DNA of 64,000 nt from assembly GCA_963721805.1 (NCBI GenBank), contig CAVRJY010000001.1, positions 499,882 through 563,881 of the forward strand. The letters are read 5' to 3'. Every line of letters begins with the position of its first letter. Within the stretch, counting starts at the first letter, position 1. The stretch comes from Nitrospirota bacterium (GTDB lineage Bacteria; Nitrospirota; Thermodesulfovibrionia; Thermodesulfovibrionales; JdFR-86). Under the pieces are notes generated by a model. It ran no database searches. It had not been told where the DNA came from and saw only the letters and a program-made list of their open reading frames with translations. This document shows positions 2,493-56,693 of the stretch, in pieces. The translations under genes and the position numbers were made by a program.

Positions 2493-4883
<2,391 letters not shown>

Positions 4884-4885
4884 CG

Positions 4886-11365: not shown

Positions 11366-11950
11366 ATGGAAACTGAGATAAAATTAAATCAAATAAATAT
11401 TAAGGTTCCTGGCAACTGGAACAGAAGAATTTTTTCACCAGCTTGGATTAGCAAGAATTTTACTGTGCCCGAAGGTATTCGTGAGATAAATTTACTTTTT
11501 AATCCAGACGATATAGAGATCGGCTATAAAATAATGGGAGTGCAAATTTTTCCTAAAGAAAACGAATTGGCCTTAGTTATTGGAAATTCAGACGAAATTA
11601 ACAATGACAACATACTTTTATGTTTTAAGCTTTTCATAAAGATTTTAGACATTCTTCCTCAAACCCCGATAAAAGCAATTGGATTCAATGTGGACTATTT
11701 GTTACCTGTTAATGCAAAGTCTAATTTAGGTGATTGGATAAAAAAGCAAAAACAAGATTATGAAAAGCTCGCAATGAATGGCTTGACATTAAAACAAGAC
11801 ACCGAGAAATATACATTAAATTTAAAAATCGAAATCATCGCAGATACCTTTAAGGTAGATTTTAATTACCATTTCAAAAATTACGTTGACATTGATCAAT
11901 CTCCAGATTTTTTCATAAAGCTTATCGAAGACACAAAGAGGTACTTATAA
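11366..11950 (+). CDS. Hypothetical protein, first gene of AT-rich orphan operon
   Basis: 194-aa ORF in an AT-rich island; no motif recognised; its stop overlaps the next start (TAATG). Confidence 0.6.
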   Translation: METEIKLNQINIKVPGNWNRRIFSPAWISKNFTVPEGIREINLLFNPDDIEIGYKIMGVQIFPKENELALVIGNSDEINNDNILLCFKLFIKILDILPQTPIKAIGFNVDYLLPVNAKSNLGDWIKKQKQDYEKLAMNGLTLKQDTEKYTLNLKIEIIADTFKVDFNYHFKNYVDIDQSPDFFIKLIEDTKRYL

Positions 11951-12435
11951 TGTCTGACTCTCCTAATATGGCGCTCTCAAACACTGAAAACAATGAGCAT
12001 GAAAATATCTGGACATTTTCTATAGAGAATCCACATAACCAATTTAGCTTTAAATTTCCAGAGCGAACTTTTAGGACAAAGTATTTCACTGTCTTAAGCA
12101 ACTTGACGCGCACAGAAGACTACTATGTAACCGCTATAAGAAATTTGCTGAAAAAAACAAATTTCCTTGAATTATATCAACAGCTCTTGGAAGATCAGAT
12201 ATCACAAGAAAGTTTCCATAAAGAACTCGCGGAATCCTCCAATAAGTATGTTGTTGATATACATCCTCTTGCCAACAAAGAAGATATTAATATAATTATA
12301 GGAATTGTCAACAGAATAGGCTATGAACTCAGAGAGTTTTCTGGGAATGAAATTGATGAGCTTTTTTCAACCAATATTAGTGAAGAGATTGCTGCTATCG
12401 ACAGCAGTTCGCTGACGAAAAATCTGTATGGTTAA
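11950..12435 (+). CDS. Hypothetical protein, second gene of AT-rich orphan operon
   Basis: 161-aa ORF; overlaps the upstream gene by 1 nt and the downstream gene by 8 nt; no motif recognised. Confidence 0.6.
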   Translation: MSDSPNMALSNTENNEHENIWTFSIENPHNQFSFKFPERTFRTKYFTVLSNLTRTEDYYVTAIRNLLKKTNFLELYQQLLEDQISQESFHKELAESSNKYVVDIHPLANKEDINIIIGIVNRIGYELREFSGNEIDELFSTNISEEIAAIDSSSLTKNLYG

Positions 12436-12808
12436 GCTAATTGCCCAAGGCGCTTCAATCGAAGGCGAAAGAGTATCAGTATATACTCGCAAACAAATAT
12501 TCCACTCTCTTGTTCAAATAGGAGGTATGACATTATGTAAATACAAATGTTCGACACATGTAAAATCAGAAGTTATAGAGGAACTAATCCCAAAAAGATA
12601 TAAGATCAAAAAGACCTCCAATCTGAATGCTGGAGATTTGTTGGAGGCAGATGTTATTGAAGTATATCCCCAATCTATGCTGACGTTCGAAAAAGAAGCA
12701 AATTATAGTCATACTCATGGCATCCAAACAGCTCAATCAAAAGGTTTCACATATGCTGAAATAGCGATCCCTTTTCGGTTTTTGTTAGAAAGAGCTATTG
12801 GGAGATAA
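12428..12808 (+). CDS. Hypothetical protein, third gene of AT-rich orphan operon
   Basis: 126-aa ORF whose start lies inside the end of the previous ORF (ATGGTTAA); no motif recognised. Confidence 0.55.
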   Translation: MVKLIAQGASIEGERVSVYTRKQIFHSLVQIGGMTLCKYKCSTHVKSEVIEELIPKRYKIKKTSNLNAGDLLEADVIEVYPQSMLTFEKEANYSHTHGIQTAQSKGFTYAEIAIPFRFLLERAIGR

Positions 12809-12927
12809 GAAAATGGGAGAACCGGGACAGCTATACTTTTTACGAATTTCGATGCAGGCGGCCCTCTTCATTAACCACAGTTAATCGGAAGTTAATAGAA
12901 AACGCATGACCCTTCATTTTTCCTATC

Positions 12928-12973
12928 AACCTTCGGTTTATATATAAACCGTAGGTTATCGCATTTTTTATTT
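12928..12973 (+). terminator. Hairpin plus T-run downstream of the orphan operon
   Basis: AACCTTCGGTTTA-TATA-TAAACCGTAGGTT (13-bp stem, one mismatch), followed after 6 nt by TTTTTTATTT. Confidence 0.5.
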
Positions 12974-13219
12974 CGTTGTGCTTCAATACTGCATGAGGCT
13001 GATATGCTCATATTTGAAGGTGCTGAAAACGCGGAAGGATGCCGATGGGCGGCGCGAAAAACGTTTCTGAACGCCTAAACACGGAGGTCGCAAAAAAGCG
13101 ATGAAATCCGCATGGTTAGAAGCTGTTTTCTTCGTTCATTTGAACGCTCTAAAAAAATACGCGCGGCCGCGCGCGGTAAGTATGTATATAACTAAGGCTA
13201 CGGATGCAGGTCAAAGAAA

Positions 13220-13403
13220 GCCGTTGACCTCGTGGGGCGCGGGGGGCGGGGCCGACTGGCCCCCTTCTTTCCCCCCGAAAGCGCGCCCAAATCGGCTTCA
13301 GACAAGGCAGGGCGAGAAGACCGCCCGATGGTGTACTGTGACGTACATAGAGGGCGAGTCTTCGAAGCCCAACGCAGTATCAAGCGATTTGGAGCGCTTT
13401 GAA
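13220..13403 (+). repeat. Dispersed structured repeat, copy C (plus orientation)
   Basis: Core 13271..13403 is near-identical to copy A. It has the same GGGCGC/GCGCCC and G6/C6 stems, but the apical region is replaced by a longer self-pairing insert (CGGGGCC-GACT-GGCCCC). It ends at TTGAA, 10 nt before the regulator promoter. Confidence 0.85.
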
Positions 13404-13413
13404 AAAAAGCTTG

Positions 13414-13443
13414 TTGAGCGGTGGGGCGTTGTGAGGGTATACT
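13414..13443 (+). promoter_or_regulatory. Putative sigma-70-type promoter, possibly giving a leaderless mRNA
   Basis: TTGAGC - 18 nt - TATACT. The -10 element ends 7 nt before ATG 13451, and no Shine-Dalgarno sequence lies between them. Confidence 0.35.
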
Positions 13444-13450
13444 GTTAGTT

Positions 13451-17702: not shown

Positions 17703-19040
17703 CTAAGATATCGACTCGATGACGGCCGGGCGCGGCGGCTTCTCGCGCTCTCCGATCTCGATGCCCGAGACGAAGGCCTCCTCGGCCTCCGCTAAGGCCG
17801 CGCCGTCGTTGTAGTGCAGTATCGCCAGCGGCTCGCCCTCGCGCACCGTCTCTCCGACCTTGCGGTTTATCACGATGCCGGCCGCCAGGTCTATCTCGTC
17901 TTCGGCCCTCATGCGGCCGGCCCCCAGCAGCCTTGCGGCCGTGCCCACGGCCTCGGCGTCCAGCGCCCTGAGTATGCCGTCCCTCGGCGCGGGGACGACC
18001 TTCGTGAAGGCCGCGCCCGGGAGCGCCGAGCGCCCCATCACCGCGTCCACATCTCCGCCCTGCGCGTCGACCATCTCCAGGAACTTCTTAAGCGCGTCGC
18101 CTTTTTCTATGAATTCCATCGCCTCGTGCTTGTAGCCTCTGGTCGTGAAATCCGTGAGCCTCGCGGTGGGGCACTCCTCCGTGATCGCGTCGGAGAGGCT
18201 TAGCATCGAGGCCGCGAGGATCAGCGTGACCTCCATCAGGTCCGGTGCGCCCTTGCCCTTAAGCGCGCTTATGGCCTCCTTGATCTCGAGCGAGTTGCCG
18301 ACCGTGCGCCCCAGCGGCTGGTCCATGTCCGTTATCACCGCGACCGTTCGCACGCCCATCGCGTTGCCGATCTTGACCATCGTGTGGGCGAGGGAGCGGG
18401 CCGATTGCAGGTCCTTCGTAAACGCCCCGGAGCCGACCTTGACGTCCAGCACGAGGCCTCTCAAGCCCTCCGAGAGCTTCTTGGACATGATGCTGGACGC
18501 TATGAGCGGGATCGACTCCACCGTGGCGGTCACGTCCCTGAGGCGGTAGAGCACGCGGTCGGCCGGGGCTATCTCCGGGCCCTGCTCGGCTATCGCCACC
18601 CCTATATCGCCCACTATGGCCGAGAACTCATCCGCGCTAAGGTCGGTCCTGAAGCCGGGGATCGCGTGCAGCTTGTCGATAGTCCCGCCGGTATGCCCGA
18701 GCCCGCGCCCGGCTATCATCGGCACCTTCGTGCCCATCGCGGCCATCAGCGGGGCGAGTATTATGCTCGTCTTGTCACCGACGCCGCCGGTCGAGTGCTT
18801 GTCCACTATCGGCGTTGCGGCGTCGCCGAATTCCAGCGTCCGCCCGGAGCGCACCATCGCCTCTGTCATCGCGACCGTCTCGGGGTCGGTCATGCCGCGC
18901 AGGAATACGGCCATCAGGAACGCCGAGGCCTGGTAGTCCGGCACCAGGCCCGTGGCGATGCCGCCTATGATGAAGGCTATCTCCTCATGGGAGAGTTCGC
19001 CGCCGTCGCGTTTCTTCTTTATGATGTCATAGGTATGCAT
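17703..19040 (-). CDS. deoA: Thymidine / pyrimidine-nucleoside phosphorylase
   Basis: 445-aa ORF; N-terminus IIKKKRDGGELSHEEI...PDYQASAFLMA...; HSTGGVGDKTS motif. Confidence 0.9.
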   Translation of the reverse strand: MHTYDIIKKKRDGGELSHEEIAFIIGGIATGLVPDYQASAFLMAVFLRGMTDPETVAMTEAMVRSGRTLEFGDAATPIVDKHSTGGVGDKTSIILAPLMAAMGTKVPMIAGRGLGHTGGTIDKLHAIPGFRTDLSADEFSAIVGDIGVAIAEQGPEIAPADRVLYRLRDVTATVESIPLIASSIMSKKLSEGLRGLVLDVKVGSGAFTKDLQSARSLAHTMVKIGNAMGVRTVAVITDMDQPLGRTVGNSLEIKEAISALKGKGAPDLMEVTLILAASMLSLSDAITEECPTARLTDFTTRGYKHEAMEFIEKGDALKKFLEMVDAQGGDVDAVMGRSALPGAAFTKVVPAPRDGILRALDAEAVGTAARLLGAGRMRAEDEIDLAAGIVINRKVGETVREGEPLAILHYNDGAALAEAEEAFVSGIEIGEREKPPRPAVIESIS

Positions 19041-19163
19041 AGTCCCTCCTGTAGCTGAGCGTATTCTTTTTTATTGATTAATGGCTGAAAGTATAGTATA
19101 TTTACACGAATAGTATACATGTGGCGTTATGCATATTAAAACAGGGGGTGAAAGGGGAATCCT

Positions 19164-32276: not shown

Positions 32277-33329
32277 GTGCAGGATGATATCTTCGGACTG
32301 ATCGTGTTCGGAAACACGGTGGGGCAGTATGCCATAAGCCTGGGCATTCTTCTGGGCGGTGCGCTCCTGATAAAGCTCTTCGAGTCGATAGTGCTCAGGC
32401 GGGCGAGGGCGCGCGCCGCCGCGACCGAGACGAAGGTGGACGACGTCCTCGTTGGGCTCATAGACCGGGCTGTGTTGCCGGTTTTGTTTTTCGTCCTGTT
32501 TTACCTATCGGTCCAGCACCTGAAGCTGCACCCCAAGGTCGAGCGCGGCATATGGCTGCTGGGCGTCTCGATCTTCACCTACGTAGGCGCACGGCTGTTA
32601 AGTGCGATACTCACCGCGTATTTCGAGCACTTCTGGGGCGCGCACGACCCTGCGCGCAAAGAGAGCATTCGGAGGCTCATGCCGTTTGCGCGGGCCCTGA
32701 TCTGGGTATCCGCGACTGTGTTCCTGCTCGATAACCTCGGCTTCAGGGTCTCGGCCGTGGTGGCGGGGCTCGGCATAGGGGGCGTGGCCGTGGCGCTCGC
32801 CGCGCAGGCGATACTCGGGGACCTCTTCAGCTACTTCGCGATCATGCTGGACCGGCCGTTTTATATAGGCGAGGTGATCATGGTCGGGGAGTTCAGCGGG
32901 GCGGTCGAGCACATAGGGATAAAGACCACGCGCCTCAGGAGCCAGAGCGGCGAGCAGCTCATCGTGCCTAACAAGGACCTCACCGGCTCGCGGCTCAGGA
33001 ACCTCTCGAAGCTCCAGGGGCGGGGGGTGCAGGTCACGGTCGGCGTGACGTACCAGACCCCCGAGCCGCTCGTCTCGGCCATACCCTCGATAGTCCAGTC
33101 CGTGGTCAGCGGGATCGATTCAGCGCAGTTCGAGCGCTGCCATCTGAAGAGCCTCAGCGCCTCGAGCCTCGATTACGAGATCGTGTTTCAGGTGGCGGGA
33201 AACGACTATAATAAATATATGGACGCGCTGCAGGCGTTTAATATCGCGCTGCTTCGCGAGTTCCGCGCCAGGGGGATAGAGTTCGCGTACCCGACGCGGA
33301 CCGTATACAGCATCAGCACGGAGGGGTAA
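32277..33329 (+). CDS. Small-conductance mechanosensitive channel (MscS family)
   Basis: 350-aa ORF; N-terminal TM helices; ...AGLGIGGVAVALAAQ..LGDLFS...; beta-domain. Confidence 0.85.
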   Translation: MQDDIFGLIVFGNTVGQYAISLGILLGGALLIKLFESIVLRRARARAAATETKVDDVLVGLIDRAVLPVLFFVLFYLSVQHLKLHPKVERGIWLLGVSIFTYVGARLLSAILTAYFEHFWGAHDPARKESIRRLMPFARALIWVSATVFLLDNLGFRVSAVVAGLGIGGVAVALAAQAILGDLFSYFAIMLDRPFYIGEVIMVGEFSGAVEHIGIKTTRLRSQSGEQLIVPNKDLTGSRLRNLSKLQGRGVQVTVGVTYQTPEPLVSAIPSIVQSVVSGIDSAQFERCHLKSLSASSLDYEIVFQVAGNDYNKYMDALQAFNIALLREFRARGIEFAYPTRTVYSISTEG

Positions 33330-33356
33330 GGCCGCATAACAATCATCTTCGTATGG

Positions 33357-34175
33357 ATGGAGGCCCCGATGGCGAGCGGCAAGGGTTTATACACTGGATT
33401 ACTGCTGGTGGCGGGCGCGATAGCCGTCGCGCTCATGGCCGCTGAATTCATGACCGCGGAGGGCATGTCCATGTCAGGGAAAGAACCTGTCACCGATGCC
33501 GCGATATTCACCTCCCACCGCCCGGCCGGAAGTGCTCTCGCCACGTTCGCTATCGGCTGATTCTGGGGCACCGACTCCCGGTTCGGGAGCCTTAAGGGCG
33601 TTATCTCAACCCGCGCGGGCTATGCGGGAGGAACGACCTCCTCGCCCACATACCACGACATCGGCGACCACAGCGAGAGCCTCCAAGTGCTCTACGACCC
33701 CTCGGTGATTAGCTACGAGGCCCTGCTTCGAGTCTTCATCGAGGGCCACGACCCGTTCTCCCAGCCGTATTCGAGGCAGTACCAAAACATCGTCTTTTAC
33801 TCCGGCGAGGCCCAGCGGGCCGCGATAGAACGCGAGTTCGGCAGGCTCTCGGTTGGCGGCAGGAAGGTCACGACGCGCGTCGAGCCGCTCCGCACCTTCA
33901 CGCAGGCCGAGGACTACCACCAGAAGCACGACCTCCGCATGTTCGGAGAGTTCGAGGCTGAGCTCTCGGCGAAGCTCGGCCCCCAGTGGCTGTTCTCGAC
34001 TCCGGCGACGAGGATAAACGGATACCTAGGCGGAAGCGGCAGCTGCGAGGAGCTTCAAGCGGAACTCAAGGGATTTCAACTATCAGAGAGGCTCTCAAGC
34101 GAGCTTCGCTCTACCGTATGCCAGGGACAGGAGAGCCGCCCCGGTGCAACGTGCCCGGTCCCGGCGAGGAAATAA
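33357..34175 (+). CDS. msrA: Peptide-methionine (S)-S-oxide reductase MsrA, probable selenoprotein (in-frame UGA at the catalytic position), with N-terminal membrane anchor
   Basis: ORFs 33357..33560 and 33687..34175 are in the same frame. Hand translation across TGA 33558..33560 gives ATFAIG-U-FWGTDSRFGSLKGVISTRAGYAGGTTSSPTYHDIGDHSESLQVLYDPSVISYEALL...AEDYHQ, so the TGA replaces the Cys of the GCFWG motif. Confidence 0.75.
33575..33589 (+). promoter_or_regulatory. Candidate bacterial SECIS apical hairpin
   Basis: CTCCCG-GTT-CGGGAG starts 17 nt after the first base of the in-frame TGA and has a G/U-containing loop. Confidence 0.45.
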
Positions 34176-34193
34176 TAATGTATCATATCCCCC

Positions 34194-34958
34194 ATGGGAA
34201 TTGACGAGCTTCGTGAGATAATGGTGGCGCTCCGTGAGCGCTGCCCGTGGGACAAGAAACAGACTCGCCGCACCCTGCTGCCTTATCTGGTCGAGGAGAG
34301 CTACGAGCTTTTGGAGGCGCTCGAGGCCGACGACACCCCGGCCATACGCGAAGAACTCGGCGACCTGCTCTTTCAGATCGTGTTTCACTCCCGCATCGCC
34401 GAGGAGCGCGGCGAGTTCACGCTCGACGACGTGATCGGCGACATATCCCAAAAGATGCGCCACCGCCACCCGCACGTGTTCGGCGACGCCCGGTACGATA
34501 CGGCCGAGGAGGTCCTGGGCCAGTGGGAGACCCGGAAGAAGGAAGAGGGCAAGGGCAGGACCTCGATCCTCGAGGGCGTGCCTTCCTCGATGCCAGCGCT
34601 CCTGCGCGCCCACAGGCTCCAAAGCCGTGCGGCGCGCGCCGGGTTCGACTGGCCGCACATCGACGGCGCGCTCGGCAAGCTCGAAGAGGAACTCGGCGAG
34701 TTCCGCGAGGCGCTAAAGAAGCCCGAGGACGCCGAGGCGGTCGAGGACGAACTCGGGGACATATTCTTCGCGCTCGTAAACGTCGCGCGGTTCGTGGACG
34801 TCAATCCCGAGCACGCCCTCAGAAAGACGATCAGCCGCTTCATCGGACGCTTCCGTCATATCGAGGAGCACGCCGAGTCGGAGGGCCGCTCGCTCGATGA
34901 CATGACCCTTGAGGAGATGGACGCCCTCTGGGACGAGGCCAAACTCAAAGAACGCTAA
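34194..34958 (+). CDS. mazG: Nucleoside triphosphate pyrophosphohydrolase MazG
   Basis: 254-aa ORF; two MazG repeats with EE..EL.EA and ELGD(L/I)(L/F)F motifs. Confidence 0.9.
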   Translation: MGIDELREIMVALRERCPWDKKQTRRTLLPYLVEESYELLEALEADDTPAIREELGDLLFQIVFHSRIAEERGEFTLDDVIGDISQKMRHRHPHVFGDARYDTAEEVLGQWETRKKEEGKGRTSILEGVPSSMPALLRAHRLQSRAARAGFDWPHIDGALGKLEEELGEFREALKKPEDAEAVEDELGDIFFALVNVARFVDVNPEHALRKTISRFIGRFRHIEEHAESEGRSLDDMTLEEMDALWDEAKLKER

Positions 34959-34990
34959 AAGAAAAAGGCCGCCGGACGAATCCGGCGGCC
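34957..34990 (-). terminator. Rho-independent terminator for the convergent minus-strand operon
   Basis: GGCCGCCGGA-CGAA-TCCGGCGGCC; on the minus strand it is followed by TTTTTCTTTT. Confidence 0.8.
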
Positions 34991-35008
34991 CGTATCAGGC
35001 ATCATCCC

Positions 35009-36547
35009 CTACGAATTAAAGACGTAGTCCCATATCATCCTGAATATCCTGAACTTCGAGTCCGTGGTTCTGGCACGGAATTGCGAGCCGAGTCCATAGC
35101 CGCCGCCGGTGTCGTAATCGAGGTTGGTCGGCAGATCTACGCGCGTGGAATCCGGCGTCACGTCCGCCCTAAAGTCGTATAAGTGTCCAGAAAAATTACC
35201 GGTATAGAATATCTCCATCTCGGCGTTGGCAGGAGTATACGATGGCATCGTATAGAAAAAGCTCATCGGCGTGGGCGGCCCCGAGCTGAAATAATGTCCG
35301 GCCGGCGGGTTCGCGTCAGCCGTTGAATTGACTAGCGTGGCGAAGTCCGATGAGGTGAGTGCGGTGGACTGCTTCGCGGTGTACGGTATGGCGACGTCCT
35401 TGGACTCATAGGTGTCGGTGGCGTAAGTGGCATACCAGACGTCCACCGTATAGGCCGATGCGTCCGGGATAGCCGCGAGCGTGGCGTCGTTTATTATCAG
35501 AGCGTCGCTCCCGGAGCTTAGGAAAAACGGGTTACCGCTGGGGTCCATCTCGGCGCACTCGCTGGCGACTCCGGGGCCTGTAACGCAGATGCTGACGATG
35601 CCGAACTGACCAGGGTCTTCCGCGTTGATCTTAACGCCGCCGCCGAACGAGACGTTGTTGTCGGCGTCGATGTGCTCCTCGTTATACGCAAAGAGATAGA
35701 CGTCCGAGTGAAACCCGTTGCCTATAAACACCCAGCCGCCCGCACCGCTGTAGGCAGAGATGTCATATATGAGCCTGTAACTCATGGGGTAATAAGACCC
35801 GTCGTCTAAATGGGCTATGATTGATACGTCATACATGCCGTCGAAGGTCTGATCGGTGATCGTGACTCCGGTTACCTGGGTCAGCGCGCGGCCCGGGGCG
35901 TTAAACTTCGATATAAAGTGCTGGATCAGGCCGGACGAAATGAGCGTGGAATCGGCATTGAAGATGTCGTCGCGGGAATACCCGTCGTGGACGCCGAAGG
36001 AGGTCGCATTCGCGAGAAAGAATCCGTCGATGTCCGAGTCTGTAAGCGACGGGCTTTTGGCCTTGGATACTGCCGCAAAATCATTGAACATCTTCGCTAT
36101 CAGGTCCTGAATCGAGATGTTCAGGCTGACCGAGGCGGTCAGTATGTCGGCCGTCGCGCTCCCGGAGTAAAGCGGGTGTCCAAACGCATCGAGGAGGTCG
36201 ACATGAAACACGCGGCTGTTGCCGGCCGGGACGTCCATGGTGAGCGTCACCGAGGTGGCTCCGTTGATGTCGGCGCTGGCGGACAGCGTGCTCATGTCGC
36301 TGCCGCTGATGGTCAGGCTCACCGAGTTAAGAAAAGACGGGCCCCCGCCGACCGCCGCCTTCATCCCGGCCGAGCCCGCCAGCGCTGCCTCGGCCGACTT
36401 GGGCAGCCCCTTGAGGTTGATCGATACGCTCGCGCTGCCCGAAAAATGCGACGACGATGACGATGATCCCGATCCCCCGCCCGTGCAGCCCGCTATCATG
36501 AGCAGCCCGAGCAGGGCCGCGAGGAGTGCGAATTTATATCTGTCCAT
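35009..36547 (-). CDS. Lipoprotein of unknown function
   Basis: ORF 35009..36556; lipobox LLMIAGC followed by a Gly/Ser linker; no other motif recognised. Confidence 0.7.
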   Translation of the reverse strand: MDRYKFALLAALLGLLMIAGCTGGGSGSSSSSSHFSGSASVSINLKGLPKSAEAALAGSAGMKAAVGGGPSFLNSVSLTISGSDMSTLSASADINGATSVTLTMDVPAGNSRVFHVDLLDAFGHPLYSGSATADILTASVSLNISIQDLIAKMFNDFAAVSKAKSPSLTDSDIDGFFLANATSFGVHDGYSRDDIFNADSTLISSGLIQHFISKFNAPGRALTQVTGVTITDQTFDGMYDVSIIAHLDDGSYYPMSYRLIYDISAYSGAGGWVFIGNGFHSDVYLFAYNEEHIDADNNVSFGGGVKINAEDPGQFGIVSICVTGPGVASECAEMDPSGNPFFLSSGSDALIINDATLAAIPDASAYTVDVWYATYATDTYESKDVAIPYTAKQSTALTSSDFATLVNSTADANPPAGHYFSSGPPTPMSFFYTMPSYTPANAEMEIFYTGNFSGHLYDFRADVTPDSTRVDLPTNLDYDTGGGYGLGSQFRARTTDSKFRIFRMIWDYVFNS

Positions 36548-48475: not shown

Positions 48476-49369
48476 CTAGGTGAGGGACCGCGTCCCCTTC
48501 AGGAAATCCCTGAACGCGGAATATTTGGGCGGCAGAGCCCGCTTTTTATGCGTCGAGACATAAAACTCCCTCTTGAGCGTCGCGCCGTGTATCGGGATCT
48601 CAACGAGCGCACCATACTCCAATTCATCCTGTACCGCTACCCTGGAGATGAAGCTCACGCCCATCGCTGACTTCACGGCCTGCTTTATGCACTCGGTCGA
48701 GCCCAGTATGGCCGCGACCTGAAGCGAGCGCGGGGCTATGCCGTGGGATTCGAGGAACCGCTCCATGATCTTCCGCGTCCCCGAGCCGCGCTCCCTTATG
48801 ACGAACGGGAGCCCGGCGATCGCCCTAAGCGCGATCTTCTTTTTCCTGAGCAGGCCGGGCGAGGCGACCAGTATCATCTCGTCGTCCGCAAACGGCTCGT
48901 AATTCAGGCGTTCGGGCTCCATGACCGCCCCCACGCAGCCCATCATTATCTCGTTGCCCTGCACCCACTGGGCCACCTGCTGCGAGTCGCCGATGCGCAC
49001 CTCGATCGAGACCTCCGGGTGCAGGGCCCTGAACCTCTGGAACAGCACCGGGATGATGTACGTCCCCGGTATCGTGCTTGCGCCGACGAGTATCGTCCCC
49101 GAGATGCTCCCGGACATCCTCTCGGCGGTGTCCTTAAGGGCCTCGGCCTCCTGGATGATCCTGATGACCTTGCGGTAGATGCCTTCGGCCTCGCGCGTCG
49201 GGACGATGTTGCGGTTGAGCCTGTCAAACAGGTTGCAGCCGAGTTCGTCCTCGAGGCCCTTGATGTGTTCGCTGATCGTGGGCTGGCTCAGGCCGAGTTC
49301 GGCCGCGGCCTTCGTGAAGCTCCTGTTGTTGAATACCGCAACGAACGAGACCAGCTTGCCGATGTCCAT
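48476..49369 (-). CDS. LysR-family transcriptional regulator
   Basis: 297-aa ORF; N-terminal HTH FTKAAAELGLSQPTISEHIKGLE. Confidence 0.9.
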   Translation of the reverse strand: MDIGKLVSFVAVFNNRSFTKAAAELGLSQPTISEHIKGLEDELGCNLFDRLNRNIVPTREAEGIYRKVIRIIQEAEALKDTAERMSGSISGTILVGASTIPGTYIIPVLFQRFRALHPEVSIEVRIGDSQQVAQWVQGNEIMMGCVGAVMEPERLNYEPFADDEMILVASPGLLRKKKIALRAIAGLPFVIRERGSGTRKIMERFLESHGIAPRSLQVAAILGSTECIKQAVKSAMGVSFISRVAVQDELEYGALVEIPIHGATLKREFYVSTHKKRALPPKYSAFRDFLKGTRSLT

Positions 49370-49495: not shown

Positions 49496-49879
49496 ATGGG
49501 ATGCGACAAGCCTGAAGGGGCCGGGAATGTGAGAGACTCTGCTGTCGAAAACGCGCTGTTCATAGTTGTGACCTCGGATGTCATGGGGCGCGACCCCGAT
49601 ATCGGCCGCGTGCTGATGAAGGGTTTCTTCGAGACCATGAAGGCCACGGCCGCATATCCGCGTGCGGTATTTTTCATGAACGCCGGGGTGAGGCTGACTA
49701 CCGTGGACGAGGAGTTCGTCCCCCTGCTTAAGGCCATCGAAGAGGCCGGAGTCGAGGTGTTCTCCTGCGGCACCTGCCTCAAGCATTATGGGTTCGAGGA
49801 GGCCCTGAAAGTCGGATATCGCGGCAGCACCGCTCAGGTGCTCGAGGGCATAAAAGAAGCCCGGACGCTATGGATATGA
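49496..49879 (+). CDS. DsrE-like domain protein matching the C-terminal domain of the selenium-metabolism protein YedF (no TusA-like N-terminal domain)
   Basis: 127-aa ORF; VVTSDVMGRDPDIGRVLMKGFF...P.AVFFMNAGV.L......L..(I)EEAGVEV.SCGTCL.HYG....L.VG pattern as I recall it for TIGR03527-type YedF proteins. Confidence 0.6.
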   Translation: MGCDKPEGAGNVRDSAVENALFIVVTSDVMGRDPDIGRVLMKGFFETMKATAAYPRAVFFMNAGVRLTTVDEEFVPLLKAIEEAGVEVFSCGTCLKHYGFEEALKVGYRGSTAQVLEGIKEARTLWI

Positions 49880-49967
49880 ACGCTTTGCAACGGTTTCGGA
49901 GAGATGAAACTGTAACTTTAGGGGCCACTTTGCTTGTCAAGACTTTTTGTGCTAAACTCAAAATGAA

Positions 49968-50429
49968 ATGAAAAACCATATATACCGTCCACTGTATGTC
50001 GTCGTCGCACTGATCGCCGTGATACTCATCGCAAGGGCGATTTATGTGCCGAAGGATTTCGGTATCCAGGCCAGGGGATACCGCTTCGGCTGGCACAGGC
50101 TGGGCAACGAGCAGGAATGGAAGGACTTCACTTCCAAGTATGCCCAGAAGGATTATTGCAAGGGGTGCCACTCGGACAAGGCAGATCAAATCGCTGCCTC
50201 GCCGCACGTGATCATCCCCTGCCAGGACTGCCATGGGCCCGCGTTGCAGCACCCGGATAACCCGCCGAAGCTGGCCATCGACAAGGCCCGCTCCCTGTGC
50301 CTGCGTTGCCACGCCAAGCTCGTGGACGTGGGTTCCGGAAGGGCCGGAATCCGGGGCATAGACGACTCTCAGCATAACCCGGGCGCGGAGTGTGTCAGCT
50401 GTCATAACCCGCATTCCCCCGTGATATAG
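49968..50429 (+). CDS. Membrane-anchored tetraheme c-type cytochrome
   Basis: 153-aa ORF; N-terminal TM helix; four CxxCH motifs (CKGCH, CQDCH, CLRCH, CVSCH). Confidence 0.85.
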   Translation: MKNHIYRPLYVVVALIAVILIARAIYVPKDFGIQARGYRFGWHRLGNEQEWKDFTSKYAQKDYCKGCHSDKADQIAASPHVIIPCQDCHGPALQHPDNPPKLAIDKARSLCLRCHAKLVDVGSGRAGIRGIDDSQHNPGAECVSCHNPHSPVI

Positions 50430-50434
50430 GTGCC

Positions 50435-51214
50435 ATGATGATAACGAGAAGAAATTTCATAAAGAATGCGTGTATCGGGGCGGCGGCGCTCGGCGCGGCC
50501 TCTCTGACAGGGATTAAAGGGGTGCATGCGTCCGAGCCCCCGAGCAAGGACTTGCGCTACGGCTTCCTCGTCGACACGTACAAGTGCGTCGGCTGCGGCA
50601 TGTGCGTCAAGGCCTGCAAGCTGGAAAACGAGATACCCTGGAATATCCCGGCCTCGCGCACGTGGGTCGAGCGGTACGTCGTCAAGAAAGACGGCGAGGT
50701 GCTGGCAGACTCGCCGATGGCCGGCCGCGACGGGTTCACCGATCCAAAGATAGACCAGGGCGAGGACTTCCCCAAGGCGACCGTGGCCGAGGCCGATGTC
50801 TCCAAGACGATCTTCGTCCCCAAGCTCTGCAACCAGTGCGACAAGCCCGCCTGCGTGCAGGTCTGCCCGGTCGGCGCGACCTACCAGACCGCCGAGGGCA
50901 TAGTCCTGGTCGACCGCACCTGGTGTATCGGCTGCGGCTACTGCATCGAGGCCTGCCCCTACGGCGTGAGGTTCTTCAACCCCATCTACGGGACGGCCGA
51001 GAAGTGCACGTGGTGCTACCATCGCATCTCCAAGGGCATGAAGCCCGCTTGCGTGGATGCCTGCCCGTTCGGTGCCAGGGACATCGGCAACTTGAAAGAC
51101 CCCAACGACCCCGTGACGAAGATCATTATGGAGGAGCGCGTGCAGGTACTCAAGGAAGAGTTCGGAACTGGGCCTCAGGCCTTCTACCGCGGGCTTGATT
51201 GGAGGATCCGGTGA
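50435..51214 (+). CDS. Tat-exported 4x[4Fe-4S] ferredoxin subunit (NrfC/HybA/PsrB type)
   Basis: 259-aa ORF; twin-arginine signal TRRNFIK; four Cys clusters (CVGCGMCVKAC, CNQCDKPACVQVCP, CIGCGYCIEACP, CTWC...ACVDACP). Confidence 0.9.
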   Translation: MMITRRNFIKNACIGAAALGAASLTGIKGVHASEPPSKDLRYGFLVDTYKCVGCGMCVKACKLENEIPWNIPASRTWVERYVVKKDGEVLADSPMAGRDGFTDPKIDQGEDFPKATVAEADVSKTIFVPKLCNQCDKPACVQVCPVGATYQTAEGIVLVDRTWCIGCGYCIEACPYGVRFFNPIYGTAEKCTWCYHRISKGMKPACVDACPFGARDIGNLKDPNDPVTKIIMEERVQVLKEEFGTGPQAFYRGLDWRIR

Positions 51215-52482
51215 TCGACCCCAATACTATTACAGAAGTACACGGCTCCCTCTGGACCGTAAAAGAGCTGTTCGTATATCCCAACGAGTTCATCGTCTGG
51301 AGCATACAGATCGTCATGTACCCTTACATGACCGGTCTCGTGGCCGGGGCGTTCGTGCTCTCGTCGCTCTACCATGTCTTCGGCCGCGAGGAGCTCAAGG
51401 GAATAGCCTCTTTCTCGCTCGCGTTCAGCTTCGCGCTCCTGCCGGTGGCCATGATGCCGCTGGAGCTGCACCTGCAACACCCCTTCCGCGGGGTCGAGGT
51501 CTTCTTCACGCCTCACTTCACCTCGGCCATCGCTGCGTTCGGCATCGTGTTCAGCACCTATGGGGCCATAGTGGCCTCCGAGATCTGGTTCGTTTACAGG
51601 AAGTTCTTCGTCGAGGAGGCCAAGAGGCTTTCCAAGGCATCGGGCTTCGACGCGTTCAGAGGCAAGGTATACTCAATCCTGACCCTCGGCGCCTGGGACG
51701 TCTCAGAAGATGCGATACACGCAGACCACAAGGCGGTCAGTCTGCTGGCCGCCATCGGCATCCCGGTCGCGTGCTTCCTGCACGGGTATGCCGGGTTCAT
51801 CTTCGGCTCGGTCAAGGCCAACGCGCTGTGGATGACGCCGCTGATGCCGGTCATCTTCATCGTCTCCGCTATCGTCTCGGGCATCGCGCTTTGCATGTTC
51901 GTCTACACCTGCGTGCTCGAGATCGCGCGGCACCGCCACCGCAACGAGCCCAACCACAAAGAGGTCGCGCTCCAGCTGAGGGATACACAGCGCAAGACGA
52001 TAGCCGATACCAGGAAATATCTCCTCGCGTTCCTGATCGCTGCGATCACGCTTGAGCTGCTGGACCTCGTTTTCCGCGGCTATACCGCCGTCAAGAGCTG
52101 GAACATCCTCAGCACGGTCATATTCCAGAGGGACTTCGTAAAGATCTTCATCCTGCAGTACACGGTCGGCGACCTGATACCCTTCGTCCTGCTGATCCTC
52201 CCCGGCAAGATCTCACTCAAGCGCACGATGGCCGCGCTCCTCATGATCCTGTTTGGCGTGTTCATGATGCGCTGGAACGTCGTCATCGGCGGCCAGTCGT
52301 TCTCGCTGAGCTTCGCCGGGTACATGGACTACGTCCTGCCGATCATCCCCCGCAGCTGGGAGACCCTGAAGGAGGGCGTCGTTGGGGCGCTCGCGGTCAT
52401 CGCCACGCCGTTTTTGCTGCTTTACATCATCAGTTTCTTCATCCCTATCGTCCCGAAGCTCGGGAACAAGGCGGAGCACTAA
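51199..52482 (+). CDS. NrfD/PsrC-family integral membrane quinone-interacting subunit
   Basis: 427-aa polytopic ORF overlapping the end of the FeS gene; alternative GTG start at 51211. Confidence 0.8.
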   Translation: MEDPVIDPNTITEVHGSLWTVKELFVYPNEFIVWSIQIVMYPYMTGLVAGAFVLSSLYHVFGREELKGIASFSLAFSFALLPVAMMPLELHLQHPFRGVEVFFTPHFTSAIAAFGIVFSTYGAIVASEIWFVYRKFFVEEAKRLSKASGFDAFRGKVYSILTLGAWDVSEDAIHADHKAVSLLAAIGIPVACFLHGYAGFIFGSVKANALWMTPLMPVIFIVSAIVSGIALCMFVYTCVLEIARHRHRNEPNHKEVALQLRDTQRKTIADTRKYLLAFLIAAITLELLDLVFRGYTAVKSWNILSTVIFQRDFVKIFILQYTVGDLIPFVLLILPGKISLKRTMAALLMILFGVFMMRWNVVIGGQSFSLSFAGYMDYVLPIIPRSWETLKEGVVGALAVIATPFLLLYIISFFIPIVPKLGNKAEH

Positions 52483-52641: not shown

Positions 52642-53316
52642 ATGGATAAGGACGCAGCGTTAAAGCTCAAGGTCGTGGGTTTTTTCTCCGCCCTCACCGA
52701 CGACGAATTCCAGCGGATCGGCCACCGCGTCAGGATCGAGAGGTTCCAGCGTGGGACCGCGATCTTAAACGAGACCGACACGAACGAGTATATGTACGCT
52801 GTAGTCGAAGGTGAGGTGAAGGCCTCACGCACCCTCGATGACGGCCGCGAGACTATCCTCGCCATACACGGCGCTGGCGAGTCCTTCGGGGAACTCGCTC
52901 TGATCGACGGCCGGACCGCCCCGGCCACGGTCACGGCCGCAAGAGACTCCATTGTTGCGCTCATAGCGAAGCGTGATTTTCACGAGATCCTTATGGCCGA
53001 CCGGAAGGTGCTCTCCTATTTTCTCCGCCTGATGTGCTCCCGCCTCCGCGAGGCCTGGCGCACGCATGAGATACTCCAGCAGCGGGACGCCTGCGAGCGG
53101 ATCAGGATGATGCTCGGAAAGCTCGCCGCGGAGCGCGGCACACAGCTCCCGGAGGGAGTGCTGATCAACTCACGCCTGACCCACCAGGAGATGGCCGAGA
53201 TGACCGGCCTGACGCGCGAGACCGTCACGCGCGTGATCGACCAGATGAAACTGGACGGCCATTTAAGGCTCGGCGAAGACCGCCTGTACGTACTTCTGAA
53301 AGATTTTTTTGCGTAG
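52642..53316 (+). CDS. Crp/Fnr-family transcriptional regulator
   Basis: 224-aa ORF; cNMP-binding-type domain (GESFGELALIDG) and C-terminal HTH (THQEMAEMTGLTRETVTRVI). Confidence 0.9.
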   Translation: MDKDAALKLKVVGFFSALTDDEFQRIGHRVRIERFQRGTAILNETDTNEYMYAVVEGEVKASRTLDDGRETILAIHGAGESFGELALIDGRTAPATVTAARDSIVALIAKRDFHEILMADRKVLSYFLRLMCSRLREAWRTHEILQQRDACERIRMMLGKLAAERGTQLPEGVLINSRLTHQEMAEMTGLTRETVTRVIDQMKLDGHLRLGEDRLYVLLKDFFA

Positions 53317-53599
53317 TCAGCTTCCGAAATAACAAAATCAATTGCCTTCCGCATCCATGCGCTGGGCCATGTTTGTGGGTGTTTCAATCAAAGGCTTAAT
53401 CCACAATCCCGTTGCCTCCATTTTTTATCCCGGAATGCCGGTCCATTTCACAGGATATTCACATTGAGCATGTTACTATACATGCGAAAAATCGAAACAG
53501 TATAAATACTCTGCTCAGAGCAAACCGAGGGGAAACCCCGGGGCGCAGAGCAACGGGACTAAACAACGGGGACGCGGTTCCCGTTCCATGTCAGCCGGG

Positions 53600-53639
53600 C
53601 CGCCAGAGGGAAGCGTACTCTGGCGGTTTTTCTTTTTTT
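53600..53639 (+). terminator. Strong intrinsic terminator inside the crp-cytochrome gap
   Basis: 9-bp stem CCGCCAGAG / CTCTGGCGG, 9-nt loop, followed by TTTTTCTTTTTTT; about 280 nt after the crp stop and 195 nt before the next ATG. Confidence 0.7.
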
Positions 53640-53833: not shown

Positions 53834-55153
53834 ATGAGGAAATATTCAGCGGGCATAGCAGCGCTGGCCGTGTTATTCGCCCTGTCATTCGGCATGGGTG
53901 CGGTGGCGCATGCGGATGACGGTGGCGACGGCGTGAGTGCAAAGACGATCGGCGCGGCATCAAGCGCATATGTCGTGTTCTCCTGGAACGACCTCGGCAT
54001 GCACTGCATGAACCCCACTTACGACAAGGCGGTTATCCTGCCTCCGTATAACAACCTCTACGTACAGGTCGTGAAGCGCGGCAACCCGCCCATGATTGTC
54101 AACAGCGGGATCTCCGTCTCGTACAGCATCGCCGGCAATACGTATACCTACGGCAAGCGCAGCTACGGCCAGTTTTGGGACAATATGATGGAGCTGTTCG
54201 GCATATCGCTGCCCAAAAACAAGGGGCTTAACCTGACGGACCCGACCGTCAATAACGGTCTTTCGGGAAAGATGCTTGCGAAGCCTGACTATTACGTCGC
54301 CAACGGCATACCCGTCTCTCCGGTCTCGGACAAGGGTGCCTGGAACCCCTACCAGGTAGCGAATATCACGGTCAAGAACAGCTCCGGTACGGTCATCGCC
54401 AGGACGCAGGCCACCATCCCGGTCTCGGACGAGATCAGCTGCTCGAAGTGCCACGGGGCCGACCCGTTCGACGATATCCTCACCAAGCATGACGCGATGC
54501 ACGGCACCGACCTGATGAACAGCAAGCCGGTCATATGCGCCGGCTGCCACGGCGATCCGATTCTCGGCCAGACCGACACGGGCGCGGCGGGCATCTACCT
54601 CTCCGCGGCGATACACAGCTCACACGCCGACAGGGGCGCAGCCTGTTATGACTGCCACCCGGGGGACAAGACGCAGTGCAGCAGGAGCCTCGCCCACACC
54701 GCACCTGACGGCAACTGCACGACCTGCCACGGCCAGATGAGCGACGTCGGCGGCAGCATTCTAAACGGCACGCGCACCCCCTGGGCCGGCGAGCCCAAGT
54801 GCTATACCTGCCACAACGTCGCAAGCCAGGTCGACACCGGCGATGCCCTCTACCGCAACTCACGCGGCCACGGCAATATGTTCTGCTCGGCTTGCCACGG
54901 AAGCCCGCATGCCATGGTCCCCACTAGCAAGGCCTCGGATAACTATCAGGCCATACAGGACCAGAGCGCAGCCTACACGATCGGTGACTGCAGGGTCTGC
55001 CACCAGACCTCGCGCGGCGGCGGCAGCGCCTCTGAGTTCGCCGAGGAGCATGGCGGCAGCAACAAGAGCGCCTGCAACGTTTGTCACACCGGCTACAAGT
55101 CAGCGCGCGACACCACCAAGTGGCCGCATAACTTCCTCTGGAAGTCGAGATAA
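53834..55153 (+). CDS. Secreted octaheme c-type cytochrome with ~170-aa heme-free N-terminal domain (paralog 1)
   Basis: 439-aa ORF; AAGGAGG upstream; signal peptide ...AVAHA/DD; eight CxxCH motifs, all in the C-terminal ~240 aa; N-terminal WNDLGMHC motif. Confidence 0.9.
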   Translation: MRKYSAGIAALAVLFALSFGMGAVAHADDGGDGVSAKTIGAASSAYVVFSWNDLGMHCMNPTYDKAVILPPYNNLYVQVVKRGNPPMIVNSGISVSYSIAGNTYTYGKRSYGQFWDNMMELFGISLPKNKGLNLTDPTVNNGLSGKMLAKPDYYVANGIPVSPVSDKGAWNPYQVANITVKNSSGTVIARTQATIPVSDEISCSKCHGADPFDDILTKHDAMHGTDLMNSKPVICAGCHGDPILGQTDTGAAGIYLSAAIHSSHADRGAACYDCHPGDKTQCSRSLAHTAPDGNCTTCHGQMSDVGGSILNGTRTPWAGEPKCYTCHNVASQVDTGDALYRNSRGHGNMFCSACHGSPHAMVPTSKASDNYQAIQDQSAAYTIGDCRVCHQTSRGGGSASEFAEEHGGSNKSACNVCHTGYKSARDTTKWPHNFLWKSR

Positions 55154-55391: not shown

Positions 55392-56693
55392 ATGCGGAAA
55401 GGCTTAATAGTCTCGCTCGCGGCAATCGCATTATTGTTCTGGTCATTCGGGATGGCGTTTGCGGATGACGACGTCGGGTCCAAGAAGATCGGCGCGGCCA
55501 AGAAACCATACGTTGTGTTCGCCTGGAACGACCTCGGGATGCATTGCCTGAACCCCACTTACGACACTGCCGTGATCCTGCCTCCGTATAACAGCCTTTA
55601 CGTTCAGGTCGTCAAGCGCGGCAACCCCCCCACGATAGTCAACAGCGGGATCTCGGTCAGTTATAGCATCGCCGGGAATACCTATTCATACGGCAAGCGC
55701 AGCTACGGCCAGTTCTGGGACAACATGCAGGCTCTGTTCGGGATAACGCTCCCGCATGACAAGGGCCTTAACCTCACGGACCCGACGGTCAACAACGGGC
55801 TCTCGGGCGGGATGCTAGCCAAGGGCGACTACTATGTCGCAAACGGGATACCAGTGACGCCGGTCCTCGACAAGAAGCTTAAATGGAACCCCTATCAGGT
55901 CGCCAATATAACGGTCAAGGACGCAAGCGGCAAGGTCATCGCCAAGACCAAGGCGACCATCCCGACCTCGGACGAGATCAACTGCGCCAAGTGCCACGGG
56001 GCCGACGCTTTCAACGATATCCTCGCCAAGCATGACGCCCTGCACGGCACAGACCTGATGAACAGCAAGCCTGTAATCTGCGCCGGCTGCCATGGCGACC
56101 CCATCCTGGGCCAGACCGACGAGGGCGCGGCGGGCATCTACCTCTCGGACGCGATCCACAGCTCTCACGCCGACAGGGGGGCGGCCTGCTATGACTGCCA
56201 CCCCGGTGAGACCACGAAGTGCAGCCGCAGCCTCGCCCATACCGCCGCGGACGGCAACTGCACGACCTGCCACGGCCAGATGAGCGACGTGGCCTCGAGC
56301 ATCGAGGCCGGCCGCATACCCTGGAGCGGCGAGCCCAAATGCTATACCTGCCATAACGTCTCAAGCCAGGTCGATACCGGTGACGCCCTCTACCGCAACT
56401 CGCGCGGACACGGCAACCTGTTCTGTTCGGCCTGCCACGGGAGCCCGCACGCCATGGTCCCGTCAAGCCAGAAGTCCGACAACTACCAGGCCAAGCAGTA
56501 CCAGAGTGCGGCCAGGACGATAGGCGACTGCAAGGTCTGCCATAGGACCTCGCGCGGTGGAGGCGGCGCCTCGGAGTTCGCCCATGAGCACGGGGGCGGC
56601 AGGAAGAGCGCGTGCAGCGTCTGCCATACCGGATTTACCGCTGCCGCCGACTCCTCAAAATGGCCTCACGCCTTCCTCTGGAAGTCGAGGTAA
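55392..56693 (+). CDS. Secreted octaheme c-type cytochrome (paralog 2)
   Basis: 433-aa ORF; AGGAGG upstream; signal peptide ...GMAFA/DDD; eight CxxCH motifs at positions equivalent to paralog 1. Confidence 0.9.
   Translation: MRKGLIVSLAAIALLFWSFGMAFADDDVGSKKIGAAKKPYVVFAWNDLGMHCLNPTYDTAVILPPYNSLYVQVVKRGNPPTIVNSGISVSYSIAGNTYSYGKRSYGQFWDNMQALFGITLPHDKGLNLTDPTVNNGLSGGMLAKGDYYVANGIPVTPVLDKKLKWNPYQVANITVKDASGKVIAKTKATIPTSDEINCAKCHGADAFNDILAKHDALHGTDLMNSKPVICAGCHGDPILGQTDEGAAGIYLSDAIHSSHADRGAACYDCHPGETTKCSRSLAHTAADGNCTTCHGQMSDVASSIEAGRIPWSGEPKCYTCHNVSSQVDTGDALYRNSRGHGNLFCSACHGSPHAMVPSSQKSDNYQAKQYQSAARTIGDCKVCHRTSRGGGGASEFAHEHGGGRKSACSVCHTGFTAAADSSKWPHAFLWKSR

Follow-up and report, generated by a model that had tools for sequence, protein, structure and literature searches.

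Locus

A 64,000-nt stretch of contig CAVRJY010000001.1 from a Nitrospirota bacterium of the Thermodesulfovibrionales, referred to below as the window, holds on its plus strand an msrA gene interrupted by one in-frame TGA codon. The list of open reading frames (ORFs) reports this gene as two pieces in the same frame, 33357..33560 (67 aa) and 33687..34175 (162 aa), and automatic gene calls in three assemblies likewise split it into an ORF of 63-64 aa and a fragment of 162 aa. The original prediction for the locus had joined the two pieces into one gene for a methionine sulfoxide reductase (MsrA) and had read the TGA as a selenocysteine (Sec) codon in place of the catalytic cysteine. The translation of 33357..34175 is a single frame whose sole stop, TGA 33558-33560 (+), lies within ...ATFAIG*FWGTDSRFG... 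and is followed directly by FWGTDSRFGSLKGV. The features of the gene, including the candidate selenocysteine insertion sequence (SECIS), are as follows; CoMsrA is the MsrA of Clostridium (Alkaliphilus) oremlandii OhILAs.

33360..33364, plus strand: Shine-Dalgarno sequence GGAGG, 4-5 nt ahead of the likely start ATG at 33369; GGAGGCCCCGATG is kept in ortholog L077
33369..34175, plus strand: complete coding sequence of the predicted selenoprotein msrA, 268 codons with one TGA in frame, Sec as codon 64, TAA stop at 34173-34175
33387..33443, plus strand: N-terminal hydrophobic segment LYTGLLLVAGAIAVALMAA (residues 7-25), 12-residue Kyte-Doolittle maximum 2.9
33540..33929, plus strand: MsrA (PMSR) catalytic domain, PF01625
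33558..33560, plus strand: UGA, predicted selenocysteine codon (Sec64) in G-U-F-W-G, aligned with Cys16 (natively Sec16) of CoMsrA
33575..33589, plus strand: upper stem-loop of a candidate bacterial SECIS, in which 6 bp (CUCCCG/CGGGAG) close an apical GUU loop at 33581-33583; supported by covariation and specificity for Sec-type genes
33945..34136, plus strand: C-terminal helical domain of the CoMsrA type, PF20939; helices in the AlphaFold2 model, model residues 129-192, confidence (pLDDT) above 87
34044..34046, plus strand: Cys226 codon TGC in the helical domain (GSGSC), kept in L077, L078, L001, P0003, P0005, P0006 and P0010
34119..34121, plus strand: Cys251 codon TGC in the last helix (TVCQ), kept in L077, L078, P0003, P0005, P0006 and P0010
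34140..34172, plus strand: flexible tail RPGATCPVPARK with Cys262 (34152-34154) in C-P-[LVA]-P; pLDDT below 50, model residues 194-204

Translation probably starts at 33369 rather than 33357, because the upstream ATG at 33357 is missing in ortholog L077, where the arrangement GGAGG-CCCCG-ATG at 33369 is kept. Residues are numbered from the M at 33369, which gives a product of 267 residues. With this start the N-terminal extension, put at ~65 aa in the original prediction, shortens to about 55-60 aa.

The protein is a two-domain MsrA

Pfam profiles were matched against the translation with Cys in place of the stop. PF01625 (PMSR) covered residues 62-191 of the 272-aa translation, running across the stop, and scored 124.4 bits where the cut-off is 23.7 (E 6e-36). 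PF20939 ('Selenoprotein methionine sulfoxide reductase A, helical domain') gave 24.2 bits against a cut-off of 23.7. In phmmer alignments with 30 solved MsrA sequences the TGA falls on the Cys of GCFWG, so the codon does sit at the nucleophile, as had been claimed.

The closest solved structures found by phmmer are those of Clostridium oremlandii MsrA (4U66, 4LWJ and 4LWK; E 2e-45, ~50% identity over 186 residues), the titles of which read 'U16C' and 'U16S'. An AlphaFold2 model covering the exact post-UGA translation (33561..34172; pLDDT 89, predicted template modelling score 0.84) was compared with these structures by Foldseek and matched them over 189 columns and both domains, with template modelling (TM) scores of 0.82-0.83. 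Other MsrA structures match the catalytic domain only, with a query TM score (TMq) of ~0.55. At least 36 of 40 sequences keep the active-site residues Y95, E103, Q137, Y138 and H184, and five of six substrate-binding residues match those of CoMsrA; the equivalent of CoMsrA Tyr140 is His187 in the clade of the window protein (YHQKH).

CoMsrA is a native selenoprotein of 209 aa that has no cysteines (1-Cys type) and is recycled by glutaredoxin; its Sec form is 20-fold more active than the Cys form, and its C-terminal helical domain is essential and absent from other MsrA structures (PMC4333827). Sec-containing MsrA (Sec-MsrA) is an experimentally verified bacterial selenoprotein family with the motif GUFWG/H (PMC13188914), found also in Syntrophobacter fumaroxidans (PMC1794560) and in ocean metagenomes (PMC2398784). 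The original prediction had called the class established, and the window gene is a further Sec-MsrA of the CoMsrA type within this known enzyme class.

A separate NCBIfam model, NF041383 ('VPGUxxT family thioredoxin-like (seleno)protein, type 2'), gives a weak match to residues 52-124, in the N-terminal region of the MsrA (E 2e-8, far under its cut-off), which suggests that this model contains an MsrA-like segment.

The TGA codon is conserved among distant genomes

MsrA loci with a recognisable active site, 60 in number, were retrieved from one-genome-per-species contigs. The original prediction had proposed an alignment with Cys- and Sec-type homologs; at the catalytic column it shows TGA in 41/60 loci and TGT or TGC in 19/60. 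TGA is kept in L076, L077, L078 and 37 further, more distant loci, and all TGA-type genes fall in a subfamily with the pattern G-U-FWG...GDH[S/T]E. Their hosts belong to at least eight lineages: Nitrospirota, Desulfobacterota/'Deltaproteobacteria', Chloroflexota, Spirochaetota, Actinomycetota, Myxococcota, Synergistota and Bacillota.

L076, which comes from a separate Logan raw-read assembly (run ERR12035932), is 100% identical to window positions 32601..35044 (2,444 bp), TGA included. The TGA and the flanking protein sequence are also kept in two orthologs, L077 (81% identity over the C-terminal 162 aa) and L078 (67% identity), together with the mscS-msrA-mazG synteny of the locus. A sense codon other than Cys/Sec in close relatives, or TGC or TGT upon resequencing, had been named as observations that would overturn the prediction; the relatives L077 and L078 carry TGA, and so does the second raw-read assembly.

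Between the TGA and 33687 there is no in-frame ATG, GTG or TTG. The 42 codons of this segment are nevertheless conserved: compared with L077, 29 are identical, 8 differ synonymously and 5 non-synonymously, and compared with L078 the numbers are 26, 12 and 4. The segment can thus be translated only by reading through the UGA. Purifying selection is seen on both flanks of the codon.

A reassigned genetic code (UGA read as Trp or Gly) was considered and rejected: TGA terminates 10 of 47 crude gene calls in the window (TAA 20, TAG 17), and an MsrA whose nucleophile was replaced by Trp or Gly would have no activity. As a side observation, TGA as a stop is unusually rare for a genome with 60.7% GC and a GC content at third codon positions (GC3) of ~0.85. 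One homolog, P0013 (JGI), is annotated GWFWG, with Trp at the Sec/Cys column; most likely the annotation pipeline translated its TGA by genetic code 4 or 25.

A hairpin downstream of the UGA covaries and is specific for TGA-type genes

The hairpin at 33575..33589, which the original prediction took for a bacterial SECIS at the expected distance, begins 15 nt and ends 29 nt past the UGA; its loop is 20 nt away from the codon, and its minimum free energy (MFE) is -8.1 kcal/mol (-9.2 with flanking bases). In the bacterial SECIS (bSECIS) consensus that PMC13188914 gives after Zhang and Gladyshev, such elements have a small loop in which G comes first and then U, a stem of at least 4 bp, a spacing of 16-37 nt and an MFE of -7.5 kcal/mol or lower. 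The window hairpin conforms in all four respects, with a GUU loop that begins with G, a 6-bp stem and the spacing and energy just given.

Covariation was scored on an ungapped alignment of 40 TGA-type genes, with 500 column shuffles as a control. At three stem positions one Watson-Crick pair is exchanged for another (pair 18-32: CG 22, UA 7, GC 2; pair 19-31: GC 16, UA 13; pair 23-27: GC 26, AU 5). Double-sided changes number 30, compared with 13.5±2.5 in the shuffles, none of which (0/500) attains the observed value, and every slid register scores worse than that of the hairpin. All five core pairs form in 28/41 TGA-type genes and in 0/19 Cys-type genes; a local MFE of -7.5 kcal/mol or lower is found in 35/41 and 0/19, respectively. 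At third codon positions within the stem (columns 21, 24 and 30) the entropy is 0.17, 0.28 and 0.46 bits in TGA-type genes, versus 1.87, 1.85 and 1.82 bits in Cys-type genes. The loop is GGUUC in 25, AGUUC in 7 and AGUUU in 5 of the 41 TGA-type genes. The stem encodes the peptide D-S-R-F-G-S, and the variants D-A-Q-F-G-Q and D-A-R-F-G-R change both sides of it jointly. We conclude that the RNA structure constrains the MsrA protein sequence at the stem.

RNAalifold, run on 40 sequences, preferred a different pairing, of columns 1-10 with 20-28; this candidate was rejected, as it shows zero compensatory changes.

The N-terminus points to export or membrane anchoring

From 33369 the protein would begin MASGKGLYTGLLLVAGAIAVALMAAEF..., with one Lys, a 19-residue hydrophobic stretch and a net-acidic linker. 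The hydrophobic segment may be a signal peptide, for which cleavage after AVA is conceivable, or else a signal anchor of N-in/C-out topology. The flanking charges, a single Lys on the N-terminal side and net-acidic sequence on the other, favour the N-in, C-out orientation.

Similar N-termini are common among the homologs. A hydrophobic 12-mer (Kyte-Doolittle value of at least 2.0) precedes the active site in 27/40 TGA-type genes, with several more borderline; lipobox ends (such as LLASC, ILGC, LSGC and LAGC) are present in at least 11 TGA-type homologs, and one has a Tat-like SRRVFLKG motif. The same architecture also occurs among Cys-type homologs: in P0008 a signal peptide and a PPID linker accompany GCFWG, the helical domain and a CPVP tail, and lipoprotein signals are borne by P0014 and P0015. 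Sec-type members that lack the extension, in the manner of CoMsrA, occur in Ammoniphilus, Sinobaca and a Clostridia metagenome-assembled genome (MAG). The hydrophobic N-terminus in about two-thirds of the Sec-type homologs, many of them with lipoprotein signals, speaks for the membrane-tethered or exported form that the original prediction had suggested. We consider it probable that the window MsrA is exported or membrane-anchored, and the homologs support export or tethering as a predicted property of the Sec-type subfamily.

In L024, a delta-proteobacterial MAG, the region upstream of the TGA at 9866 carries the twin-arginine-like SRRVFLKG together with a lipobox, FLKAC, which hints at Tat-dependent export of a folded selenoprotein. 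In L045 and L047 (Bacillota/Halanaerobiales MAGs), a single ORF with a signal peptide joins an MsrB domain to a Sec-type MsrA (FG-U-FWG), apparently as an exported MsrB-MsrA fusion selenoprotein; the hairpin of these genes is divergent, with the loop UGUAU.

C-terminal cysteines

The three cysteines downstream of the catalytic position, Cys226, Cys251 and Cys262, are candidate resolving residues and are all kept in the clade of the window protein (L077, L078, P0003, P0005, P0006 and P0010). The Cys262 column is Cys, within the C-P-[LVA]-P motif, in 11/40 Sec-type sequences and in the Cys-type protein P0008. The last 11 residues, Cys262 among them, are modelled as disordered by AlphaFold2. By analogy with E. 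coli MsrA, a C-terminal cysteine relay that resolves the Sec intermediate is possible, although we regard this idea as speculative and somewhat doubtful.

Decoding of the UGA and alternative explanations

No selA, selB, selD or tRNA-Sec was found within the 64-kb window, in which ARAGORN detected 0 tRNAs. Pfam scans of 49 further window ORFs and annotation of the genes flanking msrA in the synteny comparison revealed neither Sec machinery nor a second selenoprotein gene, and a scan of the window for ORFs read through TGA returned only frame coincidences between adjacent genes. Complete selABCD sets are reportedly carried by Thermodesulfovibrio genomes (PMC5389517), which belong to the host lineage, the Thermodesulfovibrionales. 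In Sinobaca qinghaiensis DSM 17008 (L030), a tRNA-SeC gene with anticodon UCA (18967-19058, minus strand) lies 9 kb from a TGA-type msrA. Taking together the TGA in orthologs and in 37 distant genomes, the purifying selection on both sides of it and the lack of an internal start, we consider the predicted decoding of the window msrA UGA as Sec very probable.

Besides the missing machinery in the window, several observations weigh against this reading. TIGR00401 of NCBIfam gives 103.8 bits, slightly under its equivalog cut-off of 108.1. The window hairpin matches no Rfam SECIS family in either gathering or sensitive scans (the sole local match is a spurious snoRNA, E=1). Single-sequence folds of 33558-33620 and 33540-33640 are no more stable than shuffles (z +1.46 and +1.37), so that the support for the hairpin is comparative and not thermodynamic. 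Because the stem lies in a coding region, its covariation could in principle reflect coupled amino-acid changes (Ser..Ser versus Ala..Arg/Gln), and the consensus fold preferred by RNAalifold is a different one. Finally, no thioredoxin-like, CcdA or DsbD partner adjoins the window msrA, nor does one do so consistently in homologs; within ~4 kb of Sec-type msrA genes, thioredoxin-like (CxxC) neighbours amount to five sporadic matches, with no conserved partner.

Could the gene be an ordinary Cys-MsrA gene, mis-sequenced or turned into a pseudogene, whose TGA stems from faulty assembly or sequencing or from a recent nonsense mutation (TGC/TGT to TGA)? A single substitution suffices to turn TGC into TGA, and the window does hold assembly errors: four genes between 1034 and 5718 (PALP, kdsB, pyrG and kdsA) are split by frameshifts. 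These errors, however, are indels and not substitutions, the identical 2,444 bp of L076 were assembled from raw reads separately, the codon is shared with orthologs at 81% and 67% identity and with 37 distant genomes, it is flanked on either side by sequence under purifying selection, and a Sec-specific covarying hairpin lies 3' of it. We regard this explanation as effectively refuted already and its probability as negligible. Scarcely more credible is that the UGA is a real stop, which would yield a 63-aa membrane peptide and a separate, N-terminally truncated MsrA fragment of 162 aa from GTG 33687. The automatic gene calls of three assemblies give precisely such a split and, according to PMC4513850, UGA/SECIS recoding competes with RF2 termination in E. 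coli, so that some truncated peptide is expected anyway. In the 162-aa fragment, however, the catalytic residue would be missing, along with the GUFWG motif, Y95 and E103; the stretch of 42 codons between TGA and 33687 is conserved although it offers no start codon, its changes being synonymous more often than non-synonymous; and the fold of the AlphaFold2 model needs this segment, which contains helix 1 and the first two strands.

Two further alternatives accept read-through of the UGA and differ from our reading in the residue inserted or in the location of the product. The UGA, with its SECIS, might be read as Cys by a SelC*-type tRNACys (tRNAReC), always or under selenium scarcity, giving a mature Cys-MsrA. 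This rival is real because PMC5389517 reports selC* tRNACys genes specifically from Thermodesulfovibrio and from Nitrospirae-like contigs, tRNAReC is described as decoding UGA as Cys given a downstream SECIS (PMC13582414), and the window organism is Thermodesulfovibrionales-like. All the selC*-bearing genomes of PMC5389517, however, also had full selABCD, leaving Sec insertion available; the characterised relative CoMsrA is a true selenoprotein, 20-fold above its Cys form (PMC4333827); and the 64-kb window contains no tRNA whatever. SECIS-dependent Cys insertion is thus a minor rival, to which we give a low probability. Finally, a Sec-MsrA might be made and yet remain cytoplasmic like CoMsrA, with the hydrophobic N-terminus holding the domain on the cytoplasmic face or having no targeting function. 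Just one Lys flanks the segment, a lipobox is lacking, no gene for a periplasmic reductant lies near msrA, and the Sec-type proteins L037, L039, L030 and L023 have no extension. Homologs of the same linker and domain organisation nevertheless bear unambiguous export signals (lipoboxes and one Tat-like RR motif), and the charge distribution appears to favour the N-in, C-out orientation; a cytoplasmic location is therefore unlikely in our view, though a good deal less so than Cys insertion.

Proposed mechanism

With Sec decoding and export as the preferred reading, expression of the gene may be pictured as follows. A ribosome reaching the UGA at 33558-33560 would meet the hairpin at 33575-33589, acting as a bacterial SECIS. 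This element would bind SelB together with GTP and Sec-tRNASec, and Sec would be inserted instead of termination, as the family and the motif suggest. The hydrophobic N-terminus would target the protein to the inner membrane, either as a cleaved signal peptide or as an uncleaved N-in/C-out anchor, and the catalytic domain would be placed in the periplasm of this diderm Nitrospirota bacterium. The product would be a peptide methionine-(S)-sulfoxide reductase with selenocysteine as its nucleophile. By homology with the C. oremlandii enzyme, Sec64 would attack the sulfoxide of Met-S-O, free Met and become a selenenic acid. More speculatively, the intermediate may be resolved by a conserved C-terminal Cys, either Cys262 in the flexible CPVP tail or Cys251. 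A selenenylsulfide, and then a Cys-Cys disulfide, might be formed and passed to a thiol-disulfide reductant, in analogy with Cys51, Cys198 and Cys206 of E. coli MsrA.

Genomic neighbourhood and other features of the window

The genes on either side of msrA are:

32277..33329, plus strand: MscS-type mechanosensitive channel, upstream neighbour (NCBIfam and Pfam), separated from msrA by a gap of 39 nt; synteny kept in L077
34194..34958, plus strand: mazG (NTP pyrophosphohydrolase), downstream neighbour (NCBIfam PRK09562, 321 bits), 18 nt after msrA

There is no terminator-like site between mscS and msrA, and the two are probably co-transcribed. The msrA-mazG synteny is kept in L076, L077 and L078. 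We describe the three genes as an apparent mscS-msrA-mazG operon.

ATP synthase beta of the window shares 85-87% of its residues with proteins from Thermodesulfovibrionales and Nitrospirota MAGs, and the uncultured host is Thermodesulfovibrionales-like. Genes for multihaem cytochromes, an NrfD/FeS/cytochrome c3 module, DsrE and a BcrAD/BadFG protein are present too, a content consistent with an anaerobe. The region 49496-52482 (+) carries a row of genes whose products are DsrE-like, cytochrome c3-like, a 4Fe-4S dicluster protein and a membrane subunit of the NrfD type; this row, adjoined by a divergent LysR regulator (48476-49369), resembles a quinone-interacting redox module. Directly upstream of a multihaem cytochrome gene (53834-55153), which has a paralog at 55392-56693, lies a c-di-GMP-I riboswitch at 53509-53607 (+) (Rfam RF01051, 45 bits, E 1.5e-5), and a Crp/Fnr regulator is encoded at 52642-53316. 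For four consecutive ORFs at 11366-13445 (+), of 194, 161, 126 and 115 aa, Pfam gave no match, and their GC3 is below that of the rest of the window.

The frameshift-split genes lie near the beginning of the window. PALP is divided into 1034-1939 and 1893-2387 (minus strand), and kdsB into 2493-2978 and 2926-3246. The pyrG piece 3225-4151 continues in 4148-5257, which runs into the N-terminus of kdsA, and the C-terminus of kdsA is found at 5206-5718. These splits and fusions look like indel errors of the assembly.

Significance and comparison with known systems

Because gene callers split msrA into two ORFs, the enzyme is invisible in annotation, and the selenoproteome of Thermodesulfovibrionales-like Nitrospirota is under-counted. 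The set of 41 TGA-type and 19 Cys-type genes provides a clean family-specific SECIS signature that can be used for re-annotation. A literature search found no description of exported Sec-MsrAs, and we regard the predicted export and the C-terminal cysteines as the mildly to moderately new aspects of the window gene. If export is real, it adds selenium-dependent methionine repair to the bacterial envelope and raises the question of which periplasmic reductant recycles the selenenylsulfide. A wider proposal, to which we give slightly less than an even chance, is that the window protein belongs to a widespread, undescribed group of extracytoplasmic Sec-MsrAs (lipoproteins, secreted or signal-anchored; Nitrospirota, Desulfobacterota, Chloroflexota, Spirochaetota and other anaerobes) engaged in envelope Met repair, with a Cys251/Cys262 relay in one sub-clade. 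Were this true, that relay, with its CPVP tail, would take the place of the glutaredoxin-dependent 1-Cys mechanism known from CoMsrA and would link the enzyme to some periplasmic reductant.

CoMsrA is the nearest known counterpart, with Sec at G-U-FWG and the same two-domain architecture of PMSR and PF20939, the latter a five-helix domain that packs on the catalytic one; its residues Tyr47, Glu55, Gln89, Tyr90 and His137 correspond to Y95, E103, Q137, Y138 and H184 of the window protein. The works on CoMsrA are reportedly those of Kim et al. 2009 and Lee et al. 2014/2015. CoMsrA is cytoplasmic, and proteins of its type are soluble and start ~8 residues before the active-site strand, whereas the window protein has an extension of ~55 aa that bears the hydrophobic segment. 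In contrast to the 1-Cys CoMsrA, which has no Cys, it possesses C226, C251, C262 and the flexible CPVP tail, and its host is a Gram-negative Nitrospirota and not a Firmicute.

The E. coli enzyme (3-Cys; 1FF3, 2IEM, 7OT4) shares the PMSR fold and the presence of two Cys near a flexible C-terminus. Its Cys198 and Cys206 recycle the catalytic residue, and Cys251 and Cys262 of the window protein are placed similarly. The C-terminal regions are nevertheless non-homologous, the window cysteines being appended to the helical domain; the catalytic residue of E. coli MsrA is Cys, and the structures match in the catalytic domain only (TMq ~0.57).

The window hairpin resembles bSECIS elements, the prototype of which is that of E. 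coli fdhF, in being a stem-loop within the coding sequence, directly 3' of the UGA, with a loop in which G comes first and then U. It differs in its very small size (a stem of 6 bp capped by a triloop, or of 5 bp capped by the pentaloop GGUUC), in having neither an evident bulged U nor an evident lower stem, and in matching no Rfam model. Its stem sits in the conserved D-S-R-F-G-S peptide, and the protein sequence covaries with it.

Cys-type Msr enzymes outside the cytoplasm are the periplasmic MsrAB/PilB of Neisseria and Haemophilus and the surface MsrAB2 of Streptococcus pneumoniae with its Etrx lipoproteins (PMC9404787, PMC3914529 and PMC6372556). The window MsrA shares with them a predicted location outside the cytoplasmic membrane, conferred by an N-terminal signal or anchor, and a predicted role in repairing oxidised envelope proteins. 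MsrAB/PilB and MsrAB2 are fusions of MsrA and MsrB that work with Cys and have thioredoxin-like partners or domains of their own, supplied by DsbD or CcdA, whereas the window enzyme would be a Sec-MsrA of the CoMsrA type that stands alone, and no gene for a partner lies close to it.

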